Positions 7,475 to 22,706 of a stretch of DNA of 48,766 bases are shown here, piece after piece. The notes under the pieces were generated by a model. The model was not told the DNA's origin and ran no database searches. It saw nothing but the letters and a program-made list of their open reading frames with translations. The position numbers were made by a program, and so were the translations under genes. Within the stretch, counting starts at the first letter, position 1. Every line of letters begins with the position of its first letter. Origin of the DNA: Rozella allomycis CSF55 (lineage: Eukaryota); assembly GCA_000442015.1 (NCBI GenBank), contig KE560785.1, positions 1 to 48,766 of the forward strand. Reading direction: 5' to 3'.

Positions 7475-9684
7475 ATGGATGCGGCTTCCCGCACTGCTAG
7501 ATTTGACGTACAGCTCACAGAAAATAGATTCGAAGAGGTAAGAATAATTTAAACTAAAAATTTGCTATCCAAGTTACGAGCTGTAAAGAGAAAAGACTTT
7601 GAAGAAAAAAGCTTACGAGATCCTACGTATACACTAGTTGGAACATGCTTAGACAAGTGTCCAGAATATGAAAGACATGAAAGAGAAATACATTTAGATT
7701 TAAGCTCATTTGAAATGGTATTGAGAAGTATGCTTTTTTAGAAAAGATTCCGGGAACTGAAACCCATAATCAGAGTGGAGATTATCCAAGAATAGATCAT
7801 TTTAAAGCTGTCAAAAAATATCACAGACCTGCTGCGGGGAATGAACAGCCGTTACCAGAAGATGTGCGACCGTCAAAAGTCTTGCTTGTACCTGGCATCT
7901 ACTCATTTAATAATTAGGAAACTATGGATTATCTTGTTAAAGATGTATTAGATCGAAAAGATATATCGTTTAGTGCTGTTCACAATTTTATTCGGGACCG
8001 GACACGATCGATTCGACAAGATTTTACTCTTCAGAATATACGGGATGATTGTTGTGTTAGAATACATGAAAGGATTGCAAGATTTCATATTGTGTCAGGT
8101 TATTTACTTTGTGAAGAAGATCCAGCAGAATTTGATGCATTTCAGAATACAGAGCAGCTTCGGAAAGTTCTTCAATCTTTGCATGAGTTTTATACAGATG
8201 CAGCGAAAACTGCGGGTAGGGATAACTTGACTTTTGAAAATGAACCTGAATTTCGGTGTTATTATATTCTAACGCACTTGAAAGATACAGAAGTTTTCAG
8301 AAAAAGTCTTTCTTTTCATCCACTAGTATTTAAACACCCGTTAGTCCAGTTTGCATTAAGATGCTGCCTAGCGTTTCATTGTTCAAATTACGTTGAATTT
8401 TTCAGGTTGTTTCAAACAGCCCCGTTTTTAGCCTCTTGTCTTTTGCATTCTCATTTAAAAGATATTCGTTTATCAGCTTATAATATTATGAGCAGGGCTT
8501 ACCTTGGAAGTGAAGCTATTCCTGAAAAGTTTATAATGGAAACGCTCTGTTTTGAGGATAGGTTAGATCTAGAAATGTTTTGTGAGTTTGTTGGAGCTAA
8601 ATTGGAAAATGGAGTTTTGTTTTTTAATAGAGATGGGGAAATAGAGAATGATAAATATAAAAATCGTCGCTCATTTCTCATTGACTCTAAAAATTCGTTA
8701 CCTTTATCTGATGTTGTTAATGGAAACAGCAACAATGAATTGGTGGATTACGTTCCTCTCGTCAAAGAAACAAAAGTAGTCGAAATGAAAGATATTGATA
8801 TGGTTGACTTTTCGGAGGACTCACAACCGAATCAGGTAATGCCACTGAAACCCTTAAGACAAATCCAACCAAAAGATGAATTTGATATTGATGGATTTTC
8901 CACTCATATTCTTCATGAATTAGTTGACGATTTCTTCAATAATTTTTATATTAATTTAGTTTCCAAAGTTTATAATGACGAAATTTCTAAATTTAAAAAG
9001 GCCGCATTAGATTATACTTGTGTAGATTTATATAAACAAATAGAAAATGAAACAGTGTGTCAGTCATTGAAATCTATTATTCAAAATCAAATTAATGTTA
9101 GCAAGAAAAAAGAATTCGTTGATGCCTTCAGTATTGAAAGCGCAAGAAACTTTTTAAATCAAGAAATCACAAGTTATACGGCTTCATGTATTTTGGTCAT
9201 GTTGGCTGAAGAATTTATGGCTAAGACATATAAAGGCAAGTTTTTAACAAATTGGATATCTTTGTATAAAACAAAAAGGAAACAAAGAATCGAACGTGAA
9301 AAACGCCAGCAGCGAGAAACTCATATAAAAGATCAAGTTCGCGTAATTTCTCAATCCTCGCTTCCCCGACATTTTGTTGCAAATGATAATAGATTTTTTA
9401 CCCCAAAGAAAGCATCAAAAATTGAAACTGAACCACTACCAGAAGTTAACCGCAATACCCAAGTTAATCAAAAATCAGAACCTAATTTTGAATCATTTGT
9501 ATCACCTACGAAAAGTTCAAAGAGAAGGAAAAAAGAAGATGAAGCGACAAAAAATCATATTTCAATAAATGCAACGAATGGCGATGAAAGACCTGTTTCA
9601 GATAACGATACACTGTTTGACGCCATTAAGAAGGAAAGAGAAGAAAATGAGCAATTCGAGAAAATGCTTTTGTCTCTACAATAA
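7475..9684 (+). CDS. SAC3: SAC3/GANP family TREX-2 mRNA export scaffold
   Basis: LVGTCLDKCPEYER, AVKKYHRPAAG, FIRDRTRSIRQDFTLQ, ENEPEFRCYYIL; introns 7538-7564 (or 7573), 7718-7746 and 7888-7917. Confidence 0.9.
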
Positions 9685-13781: not shown

Positions 13782-15766
13782 ATGGATTTCTTATTGGCTC
13801 TTGAAGAAAGAGATCGAATTCAATCAGAACCGTTTGAATTGATTATTGAGTCATGTAATGCCCGTATAAAATTATCGTCTAGTTCAAAAACAATTCGCCA
13901 GGGGAAATGAATTGGAAAATAGAATCAATCTTTTGGAATGTATTTTGGAAGAGAGAGATGATGAAATTAGTAAATTGAAGCAAGATCTTAGTTCCGCATT
14001 CAAAAATGGGTAACAATCAGATTAATTGTAAAGTTTAGGGGAATTCAGTTGAGAAAAGAATTAAATGAGCTACAAGAAAAATATTCGATTTTGAATGAAG
14101 AAAGGCTGGAATTGTTCCAGCAACAACACCAAAGTACCCAACGTCTTTTATCCATGAATGATGAAATAAAGACTAAAGATTTGTTTGTCAAAGAGAAGGT
14201 TCAAGAGTAATCAAGTTAATGATTTTTTAAAAGAAATGATAGGCTTAAAAAGCAAATCGATGATTTAAACTATGATCATCGAATCTTAATACAAAGAAAT
14301 ACAGACAATGAGAAAACCATATTGCAATTGCGTGATGAACTAGTAATCATTAAAAATTACATTTAATTGACTACACTACAACTGGAGTTAATTAAGAGTG
14401 ATGAACGAATTCGATCCCTGTCGCAAGAGAATCAGTTACTTATTGATCGATGGCTAAATAAAATGAATGAAGAAGTGCAAACGATAAATCTTGCAAATGA
14501 AATTGCTGAAGAGTGAGTTTGCAATGGTTGTATAATTGTTAGGGTTAAAAGGAGGGCTCTAAAAATTGAAAACTCGGACAAGGATTTTGTACAGCTTAAA
14601 CGGGAAGATACTATTGATATGTAATAATCATAACGTTTTTATAAGAGTCCTATAAATTGTTCTGTGCCTACTACTCAATCACATGAATTCAGCCCTTTCG
14701 ACCATGAAATATCTTGCATTGCTCTTTCTAACGATAGTCAATACTTAGCGGCAGCGTCCTTCGAAAAGCAGTTAATTGTTTATAATCTCAATACAAGTAT
14801 TAACTTAGGAATTAAACTACTAGATGAACAATATATTAAGTTCAAAGGAGCGATCCAATCAATAACCGATGTGGAATTTTCACCCTTCGATGATTGTATT
14901 TTGGCTGCTTCAGAAGATCAAATGGCGAGAATATGGTCTTTAAAAGATGGTAGGTTAAAGGTATAAATATCTAAATGCCAAAATTAGTTGACGTTAACTG
15001 GACACTCGTCACGGGTTGGCGCTGCAAGGTTTATTGAAGGCGGAAATCGGATTGTAAGTTAGAATATAGCTTCAGCAAAGATAACTGGTAGTAATGATTG
15101 CACGATAAAACTCTGGGATTTGAAAAGAGGATATTGCTCCAGAACTTTTTATACACAATCATCATGCAACGACTTATGCCCCATATTCGGTTACGGGTAT
15201 CTAATATTCAACTTGATGATAGATTATCTTTTGCATCAGGTCATACTGACAATAATCTGAAATTTTGGGACTCAAGATCTTCGGAATGTGTAAAATCCAT
15301 GGACGATGTTCATTCTATGCCAATCGCTGGCGCTTTTGCATCCATCGGTATAAAAAATGACAATTATTAATAGACGGCAAGTATTTGCTAACAACCTCTA
15401 AAGATAACACGATCAAGCTTGTTGACCCACGAAAGTTTCAAGTCATTCACTCATTTTCACACGAAAGATATAATGTTAGCTTTAATCACGTGAAACCCGC
15501 TCTAAGGCAACTGTTTCATTTATGATTTACATGTAGCCCCGACAACTTGATTGCAGTTGCTGGTTCAAACAATGGAGCGATATTCTTTTGGGATGTATTA
15601 ACGGCGAAATCAATTGACTCTTTATCTTCACATACGTAAAGATATTTATTAAATGGAATTGAAAAGAAGTAGTTGCATTGGGGTACTATGGCCTAAGGAT
15701 TCCCAGTCAAGGCTGATTTCAGCAGAAAGACACCAAATCATAAAAATCTGGTCATCGACACATTAG
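13782..15766 (+). CDS. ATG16: ATG16L1-type autophagy protein (coiled coil plus WD40)
   Basis: Coiled coil LRDELTTLQLEL..ENQLLIDRWLNKMNEE; WD40 repeats (LTGHSSRV, GSNDCTIKLWDL, SGHTDNNLKFWD, SPDNLIAVAGS); 13 introns of 26-31 nt including one GC-AG and one probable GT-TG. Confidence 0.88.
14343..14369 (+). other. Probable GT-TG intron (27 nt) in ATG16
   Basis: cta|gtaatcattaaaaattacatttaattg|act aca cta caa ctg gag; contains an in-frame TAA; the first AG would give a 45-nt intron deleting TTLQLE. Confidence 0.6.
15507..15536 (+). other. GC-AG intron (30 nt) in ATG16
   Basis: ag|gcaactgtttcatttatgatttacatgtag|c ccc gac restores the WD40 SPD motif. Confidence 0.65.
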
Positions 15767-15834
15767 TCTTGCATGAAAATAAAGCTGGGATTCAATGGTT
15801 GCATCTCATTTCTGATTTTTCGTATTTATTCTAA

Positions 15835-16556
15835 ATGAACTTTCTAGGCTTGAACAAGAACAAAACATTTAAACCCAAGAAGAACATCCCGGAAGGCACC
15901 AAGCAATATCAATTGAAAAAATACGCTGAAGCTACACTAGGATCAGGCAATTTAAGACTTGCTGTTACACTGCCTGAAGGAGAGGATTTGAATGAATGGC
16001 TTGCTGTAAACACCGTAGACTTTTTTAATCAAATTAACATGCTTTACGGAACTATTACGGAGTTTTGCACTCCTTCAGAATGTCCTGTAATGAGCGCTGG
16101 CCCAAAGTAACGTTAATGCCAAATTTTTATTGAGATATGAATATCATTGGTGCGATGGTGTTACCTATAAGAAGCCAGTAAAGCTGAGCGCACCTGAATA
16201 TATTGATTGCTTGATGACATGGACCCAACAACAATTAGACAATGAAGCTATTTTTCCCTCAAAAATAGGTACAACATAACCATAGTTTTTATTAGGTAAC
16301 CAAATGCTGGAATTATCATACAGGTGTCCCATTTCCTAAGAATTTTGAGTCAGCGATAAAGAACATATTCAAAAGATTATTCAGAGTGTACGCCCATATT
16401 TATCATTCTCATTTTCCTAAAATAGTTAGTTTAGGAGAAGAAGCACACTTGAACACGAGTTTCAAGCACTTTATCTTTTTTGTTCAAGAATTTGATTTGA
16501 TTGACAAGAAAGAATTAGCACCGCTAACAGAGCTCATTAATACATTGGCCAATTAA
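15835..16556 (+). CDS. MOB1: MOB kinase activator 1
   Basis: [88 protein letters not shown]; introns of 28 nt and 55 nt (27+28). Confidence 0.97.
16269..16323 (+). other. Tandem twin intron (27 nt + 28 nt) with zero-length exon, candidate recursive splice site
   Basis: gtacaacataaccatagtttttattAG|GTaaccaaatgctggaattatcatacag; removing all 55 nt gives the conserved SKIGVPF. Confidence 0.65.
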
Positions 16557-16602: not shown

Positions 16603-16734
16603 CAATGTTGCAGAGCTACTATCAAACTCAAGTCGATGGACGCGACTAGTGTTAGCGATTCTCTTCATCTGTCTTTGCTGATGAGTGACTCTGGTAAGGG
16701 TTAATCCTAACCAAAGCTAAAGAAAGTACCAGCA
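16603..16734 (-). ncRNA. Box H/ACA snoRNA, snR82-like guide for LSU rRNA pseudouridylation
   Basis: Minus strand reads hairpin 1 (tgctggt..atcagca; gctttggt..accagagt), H box AGATGA, hairpin 2 (agag..ctct; agtcg..cgact), then ACA+3 nt; about 131 nt. Hairpin-2 pocket strands tcgcta and gatagtag pair with the LSU sequence CUACUAUCUAGCGA (yeast 25S Psi2349/Psi2351 region, recalled). Confidence 0.8.
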
Positions 16735-16929
16735 TGAGAAAAATGTGCCAATCTAAAAAGGACCCTGCCAAAATATATTTTTGCTTCTTGTGGGAAAACA
16801 AATCAAAGATAGTCCCGTCTTAAGAAAATCTTAAAGAAATCAGTAATCGTAATAATTATTAAAAATAGTATCAATTACAGTCGCACTTGGATATGCTCTT
16901 TGGTGGGTGGCTAAGTTTGAAAAAATTCA

Positions 16930-17991
16930 ATGGAGTTAGACGCCGGGAACATCCCAAAAGAATTTGAAAATGATTGTGATTCAATCCCATCTACCTCAAG
17001 CGAAAGTGAAGGTGAACAAGTGATATTGACACATGCTATGATAGATGAGATGGAGGAAGACACTTTGGCAGACTTGCATGTTCCAATGACGAAAAATGAG
17101 TTATCGGTAATGCTTATTAAAATCTATAAAAGGCTTTAAATCCCCTAGAGCCTTTTGAAAATCCGTATTTGGACAAGGAAAATGAGATTTGTTTGCTTGG
17201 CACAATCTTTAGCGCTTTGGATGATAATATTGTTATACAAACAACAGTTGAATGCGAGCCTTTGAATCTTGATTCATTAATAGTATTGGAGGATCGACAG
17301 ATACTAGGAAATGTGTTTGATACCTTTGGCCCCATCGTTTGCCCATTTTACACTGTCCGAATTCCATTAGCTACATTTCCTAACGCTTCTAGCCTAATCG
17401 GTAAGAATGTGTACTACGTAAAGAACCAAACCGAATTTATTAATACACGAGAAATCATGAAGTTCAAAGGAACGGACGCCTCCAATCAATATGACGAAGA
17501 AATAGACGCTGATGTAATGCCATTTTTAAACTTTAATGCAGGAGATAGAATTTTCAGATGACGAGAAAGAAATGGAATACAAAAAGTCTCTGAAATTGAA
17601 AAGACGCGGTCAAAAAAGAAATCATGAAAATACTTCAATCCCAGATGATTTGGCGTTTATAGCACAGTGTGTTGGAAGCTTTAACAATTCAAGTGAAATT
17701 CAGAAAAACTTTAACCAGTCAAATGAAATTCAGAATTCCGTAAACACGGTCGAAGATGAAGTAATGATTGAAGACGGCGAAATAGCTCTAATGGAACATC
17801 AAAATAGATCAAATGAAGAAGCAACAGTAGACAATAGTTTGGCCCCAAATGAAAAATCACCCATAAATGCTCATTTTACTTCTTCTACAAATGAAACTTC
17901 CAATTTTATAGAGAGCATTATCGCTGAATCAAAGGTACCAACGAAAATCGCCGATCCATGCGAATCAAACCTTCCCAAAAAGCAATTATAA
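16930..17991 (+). CDS. NAF1: H/ACA RNP assembly factor (Gar1-like domain)
   Basis: MTKNEL, LGNVFDTFGPIVCPFYTVR, KGTDASNQYDEE..EIEFSDDEKE; introns of 26 and 28 nt. Confidence 0.9.
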
Positions 17992-21468: not shown

Positions 21469-22706
21469 CTATTTATTAATACTGTTAAAGAAAATCTCTA
21501 TAATTCTATCGGCTGCTTGGGATGCTGTCAATTCATCATTTTCCAACAGTTTATCGAGAATAGGCTTGATACTTTTGACTTCACTATTTTCCTGTAACCT
21601 TTTGAAACCAGAATTTATATTTACATCCCAATCAATTGATTCTTGGCCATCCAGCAAGTCCATTTTTTCTTTTGCCTCACTCTTTTTTCTAATAGTTCCC
21701 CCGATTTCGTTTAAAATGAATTAAAACGATTACCACAGTTAAGAAATAATACTCATTTATTCCCTCCCATACTTCATTGATACCTTTTCCAGTTATAGAC
21801 GAAGCCATGTAAACCTATTACAAAAAAACACATTCTATTTACCTTTGGCGACCATACCTTTGAATTCCGTTTCATATATTTTAAGGCACTCAAATATTCG
21901 ATCTGTGCTCTTCTAGCAGTATTAATTAGTTCACCATCCGCCTTATTTACAACAACCAGATCACTTAATTCCATGATACCTTTCTTCATTCCCTAATAAT
22001 AACCTTCAAAATATTTGTACTTGCAATTCGTCGCCTCCTGCGGGAGGCACTAACAAGGCAAAAATATCGACCATATCAGCTACAAGAGTTTCAGACTGAC
22101 CAACACCGACTGTTTCTACTAGGATGATATCGTATCCCGCTGCTTCACACATGACTATTGATTCATGTGTATTTCTCGCCACCCCGCCTAATGTTCCTCT
22201 GCTTGGTGTAGGCCGTACATATGCTCTGTCTTGTCTTGAAAGATTGTACATTCTTGTCTTATCACCCAATATTGAGCCACCAGATTTTGATGAACTTGGA
22301 TCAACTGCCATAACAACTAAAAGATTAACACTATTACCAGAACAGCAACCTTATATCCTTCATTCACAAGAGACATTGCAAAACTCTCGATGAATGTGGA
22401 TTTGCCGACTCCAGGGGCTCCAGATAGTCCAATTCTAAGTGTTTTGGGTTGTTTATATGTTTCGACATCTAAGGCGAATCTCTTGCTTTTTAAAAACAAA
22501 GGCGGTCTCGTTTTTAAATTTTTGAGACATTCGGTTAATAAGAACTGAGAATATTTTCTGTGTTCCGCATTATTTGATTCCACTATAGTCAGTAATGTAC
22601 ACGATCAATTACCTAATGTAATAGATTTCGCCAATGCATTTCTGCTTCCATTAATTAAGTCATGGAGCAATTTTATAATATTTGCAGGCATGGTACCTTT
22701 GGTCAT
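21469..22706 (-). CDS. MMAA: MeaB/MMAA cobalamin-chaperone GTPase for methylmalonyl-CoA mutase
   Basis: [95 protein letters not shown]; six introns of 26-30 nt, two with non-AG acceptors. Confidence 0.93.
21708..21733 (-). other. Non-canonical GT-CG intron (26 nt) in MMAA
   Basis: gtg|gtaatcgttttaattcattttaaacg|aaa tcg ggg gaa cta gives [13 protein letters not shown]; no nearby in-frame AG. Confidence 0.6.
22309..22337 (-). other. Non-canonical GT-TG intron (29 nt) in MMAA
   Basis: ctg|gtaatagtgttaatcttttagttgttatg|gca gtt gat cca gives KVAVL-AVDPSS; the AGs at 21 and 33 nt are out of frame. Confidence 0.7.

Follow-up and report, generated by a model that had tools for sequence, protein, structure and literature searches.

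A probable 27-nt GT-TG intron in the ATG16 gene of Rozella allomycis

Described TG acceptors and ultra-short introns

TG acceptors have been described in human U2-type introns as TG-AG tandem 3' splice sites (Szafranski et al. 2007, PMC2374985). According to the available part of that study, the human TG acceptors are alternative sites: each requires an AG close by, together they account for 0.02% of sites, and no constitutive TG acceptor was found. Compared with what is described there, the fourth intron of ATG16 in Rozella allomycis resembles the human tandems in its GT-TG ends, in its probable removal by the major spliceosome, and in a TG that would be chosen at step 2. It differs in that the Rozella TG looks needed and appears to be the main site, and such sites would account for a rough 1-3% of introns, which are 26-31 nt long. 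The Rozella TG introns also often have no AG for 18 nt or more. Since an in-frame AG does lie 18 nt downstream of the ATG16 site, a human-type TG-AG tandem is possible for this particular intron. If confirmed, GT-TG splicing in Rozella would be a natural constitutive case, a kind not found in the human study, with a frequency ~50-100x that in humans.

A second parallel comes from S. cerevisiae. Spliceosomes that lack Prp18 or its conserved loop use BG 3' splice sites (i.e. UG, CG and GG acceptors are activated), with UUG among the most efficient (Roy et al. 2023, PMC10711555). On the evidence of the accessible text, the Rozella sites share this spectrum of UG, CG and GG, in which the last G is kept and the A is lost. 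The yeast sites, however, are errors in a mutant, while the Rozella sites would be used in the wild type, and in genes that need them. Unlike the yeast mutants lacking Prp18, Rozella has Prp18, although with a divergent loop. If the Rozella sites are confirmed, it becomes testable whether the Prp18 loop sets acceptor stringency, and how far the A at acceptor position -2 is needed once distance fixes the branch point.

Ultra-short introns with a near-fixed branch A are known from myxobolid myxozoans and Dicyema (PMC13644364) and from Stentor (PMC9505925), and in the former report the longer introns have A's further from the AG. The Rozella introns are similar, as far as the available portions of these papers go, in their very narrow lengths, weak internal signals and positional branch A. 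The position of this A differs, being 23 in Rozella and 10-11 in Stentor (PMC9505925). No TG-acceptor class is described in the available text of either report; Stentor introns end GU-AG, and the words non-canonical and noncanonical are absent from PMC13644364. Rozella is named neither in PMC13644364 nor in PMC7072748. For Rozella itself, the accessible text of PMC6349667 mentions introns of ~30 nt and says nothing more on them, and that of PMC8476143 gives intron density only. Unusual splice sites are not mentioned in the one supplementary file of PMC13393502 that was searched. Non-AG acceptors in Rozella were not found in the open-access literature searched. The TG-acceptor class thus appears to be unpublished, with intron 4 of ATG16 a well-supported member.

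The ATG16 gene and its fourth intron

We analysed a window of 48,766 nt (contig KE560785.1 of Rozella allomycis CSF55). The gene at 13782-15766 of its forward strand belongs to the ATG16 family, having a Pfam ATG16 domain of 46.1 bits (cut-off 33.7) followed by WD40 repeats, and an atlas search likewise returned ATG16 clusters. A profile search of the 11.86-Mb Rozella allomycis assembly gave eight matches, only one of them above the cut-off, indicating a single-copy gene. The protein has the same domain order (PF08614 and WD40) and coiled-coil register as ATG16/ATG16L1, and the oddity lies in the intron alone. The exon chain was built by hand and gave a stop-free translation of 549 residues. 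Intron 4 is the only GT-TG intron of this model; the eleven others (ten GT-AG, one GC-AG) are all 26-31 nt long and AG-ended. The features are listed in Table 1.

Table 1. Coordinates of the ATG16 gene, of the elements of its intron 4 and of related introns in the window.
Feature	Position	Strand	Remarks
ATG16 gene	13782..15766	+	N-terminal coiled coil and WD40; 549 aa from 13 exons; all 12 introns 26-31 nt long
Exon 4	14234..14342	+	terminates in conserved D-E-L
Intron 4	14343..14369	+	27 nt, phase 0, GT...TG; +9 residues vs profile if read through
5' splice site GTAAT	14343..14347	+	second commonest start, 183/783 canonical short introns
T21-T22-A23-A24, likely branch region	14363..14366	+	inferred branch A at 14365; A23 in 595/783 canonical short introns
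Non-canonical TG acceptor	14368..14369	+	last five bases one base off commonest ending AATAG (140/783)
Exon 5	14370..14512	+	C-terminal part of ATG16 coiled coil; Pfam ATG16 positions 162-200; matches ATG16L1 and Atg16 chains
First downstream AG	14386..14387	+	45-nt rival, in frame, deletes 6 residues
Second AG	14395..14396	+	54-nt cut of P0004, in frame, deletes 9 residues
ATG16 GC-AG intron	15507-15536	+	30 nt; skips TG at position 27
ATG16 GT-AG intron	15636-15666	+	31 nt; skips TG at position 26
GT-TG candidate, SAC3/GANP-like gene	7538..7564	+	27 nt, A23; homology did not decide
GT-TG call	22309-22337	-	29 nt, without A23/A24; doubtful

Intron 4 starts with GTAA, ends with TTG and carries an in-frame TAA at 14364-14366, and its removal gives LRDEL-TTLQLEL. 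This is what the preliminary description had claimed, and it was confirmed in the window at 14343-14369. On the DNA, the in-frame stop means that 14343-14369 must be removed. The likely branch region overlaps this TAA. The donor is of the type usual in this organism, while the terminal AG of U2-type introns is absent, and the intron is therefore filed as a non-canonical variant and not as a canonical GT-AG intron. The only G at intron positions 26-33 is the terminal G (14369), and the next AG after the presumed branch A is 22 nt away. A gene finder trained on the Rozella allomycis genome, with no preference among non-AG dinucleotides, chose exactly this intron. We conclude that intron 4 is probably a real 27-nt intron of the major (U2) spliceosome with TG as its main 3' splice site. 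The use of the TG, as proposed earlier, is supported at the sequence level by the protein register, the intron lengths, the A at position 23, a DNA contig reading TG and the Rab5 case.

Other interpretations of this segment were considered. A box C/D snoRNA across intron 4 (GTGATGA lies just upstream) was rejected, its best Rfam match being E 2.4, far below threshold. For the alternative donors, a GC at 14330 and a GT at 14332, no AG follows at 24-32 nt, and when the 54-nt option is read as a double intron, its second half lacks a GT start. U12-type introns have a long conserved donor and branch consensus. The donor here is of the common type, and a U12-type branch motif is absent from the 27 nt. 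The genome does contain a U12 snRNA-like match (L130, G000:C861:364863-364995), which covers the full model length at 36.4 bits, below the gathering score of 53.

It had also been predicted that the exon would be mis-called by annotators. A mis-call was indeed found in the public model P0004, although not at the 45-nt AG: the second AG (14396) is taken, i.e. a 54-nt cut in which nine residues are lost. Since P0004 also mis-trims the canonical ATG16 introns 3 and 5, its error at intron 4 is not specific to TG and carries little weight as evidence. The second public model, P0005, begins downstream of the TG site. The public gene models of Rozella allomycis, whose genome serves as reference at the base of the fungal tree, would be wrong at such sites, including ATG16.

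In introns 11 and 12 of ATG16, an AG at 30 and 31, respectively, is preferred to an earlier TG, which lies at 27 and 26. As the AG lies 3-5 nt further on in these introns, TG appears to be a second choice. For the last ATG16 intron, the hand-built gene model favours AG over a TG end. In the other haplotype, one base is listed as missing at 15661, the place of the G of the TG skipped by the 31-nt intron 15636-15666.

Protein register, rival cuts and alleles at the site

We evaluated which cut fits the ATG16 protein, using Pfam positions and printed PDB alignments with two solved chains. When intron 4 was kept in the translation, its stop written as X, 82 residues fell on 73 Pfam ATG16 positions, which is an excess of exactly nine. 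In 5npv_B and 6rgo_C the spacing between the conserved D and the W of RW, as counted on the printed alignments, is 30. Among the seven options computed, only the 27-nt TG cut gave this spacing; with no cut, or with cuts of 24, 30, 33, 45 and 54 nt, it was 39, 31, 29, 28, 24 and 21, respectively. Of the TG and 45-nt products (30 and 24), whose alignment had been proposed as a check, the former matched these two chains. Since removal of 27 nt restores the ATG16 register, the TG cut is favoured. The stretch DELxxLQLE had earlier been called conserved, and this held in part. In the solved chains there are matches at the D, joined in the fungal chain by the E, and at the L five positions further on; the residues after this L differ, and the motif is not literally conserved. 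A word-index search for ATG16 orthologues returned only Rozella allomycis records and unrelated WD40 proteins. The corresponding HMMER search was dominated by WD40 proteins, and a metagenome scan yielded one WD40-only locus.

Among the alternatives, scanning on to the first AG (45 nt) or to the second (54 nt) fares best, yet we consider it improbable. The main ATG16 product would then lack 6 or 9 residues of the coiled coil. Both cuts are canonical and in frame, the 54-nt cut is the one used by P0004, the nearer TG loses to AG in the two ATG16 introns mentioned above, and U2AF35 is present. The 54-nt product also still aligns locally, with 21.6 bits against ATG16L1 (22.2 for exon 5 alone), because LQL is repeated nine residues apart. 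Given this recurrence, the register case rests on the upstream D-E pair and on the length of the whole profile. On the Pfam ATG16 profile (cut-off 33.7) the 54-nt product scored 27.5 bits, below the cut-off, and the read-through 34.9. The length of such introns speaks against this route as well. The preliminary description had placed the in-frame 45-nt intron, with its loss of six residues, outside the usual size range, and this was borne out: 768 of the 864 canonical introns were 26-31 nt long, with one at 45, one at 54 and none at 24. Canonical calls at 33-50 nt were scarce (8/867), and in 9 of the 11 calls at 32-50 nt there was an AG before the one called, a G in frame at 26-31, or an N. 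The 45- or 54-nt deletion would also fall directly after the D-E pair. In Atg16 the residues D101/E102 bind Atg21, according to the available text of PMC10688262, and by our mapping the Rozella pair probably corresponds to them. Finally, the same AG route in Rab5b would shift the frame.

It is somewhat less probable still that the TG reflects an error in sequencing, or a heterozygous position at which the working allele has AG. Four of the 15 listed runs were examined at the ATG16 site, all of them as DNA contigs (X1, X2, X5 and X6). An X5 contig (14272-14674) bridges the site and reads TG, at a depth of ~4; along its 403 nt it shows 0 differences from the window. Two X1 contigs include 14368 and read T, with all their differences elsewhere, and neither of them bridges the site with 31 letters on both sides. 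X2 spans the site with 11 differences from the window, of which 5 are displayed and 6 are not, and X6 has no ATG16 contig across the site. The T is therefore shared by the window, X5 and both X1 contigs, although at other, polymorphic places the runs do disagree with the window. The overlap of the X1 contig ends across the site would fit a repeat of 40 nt that is shared, and not a single-base bubble, and errors would not enrich TG and CG across the genome sample. In favour of a second allele, the genome is polymorphic nearby, contigs drop alleles, and alternative contigs occur at a third to under half of the depth. With polymorphism and dropped alleles, a hidden AG allele at 14368-14369 is unlikely, yet possible.

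Divergent blocks with two alleles were seen at 15525-15843, 16669-16759 and 17111-17210, e.g. with 24 differences and 5 gaps in 320 nt. The depth of the minor allele in these blocks was about a third in X1 and ~0.43 in X2, which raises a question of ploidy. We also observed, in X1 and X6, a second copy of the 59-nt piece 14320-14378 (the end of exon 4, the TG intron and the start of exon 5), with a 2-base insertion. The flanks of the X6 copy correspond to an intergenic position, with a gene resembling an RNA polymerase subunit downstream of it (G000:C674 ~73100, L011), where in the assembly they are directly adjacent, without the copy. This looks like a polymorphic templated insertion copied from ATG16. 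The X1 contig ends would imply that the copy is identical over 14339-14378, including the TG.

A fixed damaging mutation, with the intron mostly retained, the transcript stopping at the TAA and ATG16 decaying, is very improbable. A retained intron would indeed give an in-frame stop; however, the remaining ATG16 is intact (549 codons, 11 well-formed introns), it is the only copy, and similar introns occur in conserved genes, e.g. Rab5b. As little can be said for another in-frame non-AG cut (24 nt ending in AA, 30 nt ending in CT) or for a TAA read as an amino acid with no intron: some early-branching relatives of fungi reassign TAA, and the 24- and 30-nt cuts put the register off by one residue only, but a 24-nt cut is below the observed minimum (0/864) and its last base would be the branch A, positions 26-33 have no G other than 14369, and read-through adds nine residues compared with Pfam ATG16. 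Moreover, TAA is used as a stop more often than any other codon (at 105 of 132 gene ends) and closes Rab and Rho genes past their cysteine motifs (3 of the 7 checked).

Intron survey, proposed mechanism and other candidates

The introns of Rozella were surveyed with the gene finder after training on the window and 60 separate 10-kb stretches (648,766 bases, ~5% of the assembly), and the counts were limited to gene models scoring 40 or more. In the 864 canonical introns the donor was GTA in 95%, and the acceptor had no visible pyrimidine tract. An A at position 23 from the donor was seen in 595 of the 783 short introns (76%), whatever their length. For lengths of 26, 27, 28, 29, 30 and 31 nt this A was present in 90, 75, 63, 77, 80 and 48%, respectively, against about a third elsewhere, and in introns of at least 28 nt in 255/371 (background 32%, p 1e-46). 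The finder has no donor-anchored term at position 23. AG was skipped in 1.5-8.5% per position at 10-25, and in 4/585, 1/372 and 1/185 at positions 26, 27 and 28, a pattern shaped in part by the length prior of the finder. TG was only mildly depleted in the acceptor zone (11/125 vs 15.5%, p 0.02). An in-frame stop was present in 222 of the 258 short introns of length 3n (86%) and in 60% and 68% of the others; this excess may come partly from the finder missing stop-free introns.

These observations point to a splicing machine that would pick the end point largely by distance. In step 1, the donor and a fixed donor-to-branch distance would set the branch A, giving a lariat loop of ~23 nt. In step 2, the exon would be joined to the first AG that lies 3-8 nt beyond the branch A. 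When this zone contains no AG, a TG at the right distance would be accepted as a fallback. The last G of an intron pairs with its first G. The TG would be accepted because this terminal G, the partner of the first intron G, is retained. The TG site of intron 4 was most likely once an ordinary AATAG ending, in which one A became T, a change that would then have been tolerated. Splicing at the TG is possibly less efficient than at AG introns, and retained transcripts would meet the TAA.

We also looked at the splicing machinery. The U2 snRNA has the usual branch-pairing sequence, and the AG-reading factor U2AF35 looks intact; loss of these two components thus does not explain the use of TG. Prp18 is present (L013 1660-1745, G000:C1022), and in comparison with yeast, the sole comparison made, its conserved loop has a one-residue insertion and substitutions. 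On a speculative note, this divergent loop may lie behind the tolerance of TG. In its widest form, the scheme is tentative, possible rather than probable: the wild-type Rozella spliceosome would set its branch point by distance from the donor and would use TG, CG and GG acceptors constitutively and independently of AG at a few percent of all introns, the Prp18 loop having lost its fidelity role, and the ATG16 intron would be a member of this class.

We further estimated the size of such a class, allowing any non-AG acceptor at equal penalty in the gene-finder run. Among 896 introns 29 were non-AG calls (9 TG, 3 CG and 17 others over eight dinucleotides). A TG or CG end was thus seen in 12 of the 29, where 9-13% G-ended calls would be expected (p 1e-4 to 5e-6), and in 11 of 21 after dropping calls with a weak donor, a nearby N or a stretch end. 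As 17 of the 29 calls do not end in TG, CG or GG, the finder does make false calls. In a simulation it recovered exactly 19 of 45 planted TG acceptors. As a rough estimate, ~10 of the G-ended calls would be real, i.e. ~1% of introns as seen and ~3% after correction. The A at position 23 does not separate the groups, being present in 8/12 TG or CG calls and in 14/17 of the other non-AG calls. A control run with non-GT donors allowed gave 7 scattered calls, with no dinucleotide favoured. Counting from position 26, the first AG ends at 45 or beyond, or does not occur within 80 nt, in 9 of 14 candidates.

The Rab5b case came from 30 loci fetched around Ras-family matches. In this gene (L103, G000:C720) a 27-nt GT...TG segment with an in-frame stop (L103 1543-1569) interrupts an invariant motif between KFE and IWDTAG. 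The solved Rab5 chains show an exact nine-residue gap at this segment, and a cut at the AG that follows, at 49, would not keep the frame. A hand-curated Rab5b has the KFE-IWDTAG junction, in a row marked as a corrected model and not transcript-based, as given in the available part of PMC13393502 (Table S2). Homology tests of four other candidates confirmed one (Rab5b), and one more fits a WD40 repeat by eye only. Homology did not decide for the candidate L025, as for the SAC3/GANP-like gene of Table 1. The predicted product of the calmodulin-like gene that follows Rab5b at the same locus has VMLSLG, where calmodulins presumably have an R; this may stem from a wrong base or from a splice that the model puts in the wrong place. 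We also observed a 26-nt GT...GG call with T21 and A23 at locus L104 (G000:C211; minus strand, 277-302 of the reversed locus), in a gene that we take to resemble an axonemal dynein light chain.

A different arrangement was seen in MOB1, where the 55-nt gap 16269-16323 (+) of the window consists of two back-to-back introns (27 and 28 nt), AG then GT, with zero exon between them. Both introns have T21 and A23, and MOB1 is intact once the exons on either side are joined. Of 17 sampled introns of 50-64 nt, 9 likewise contain an AG-GT junction at 26-31. These observations suggest that such double introns are spliced stepwise via a zero-length exon.
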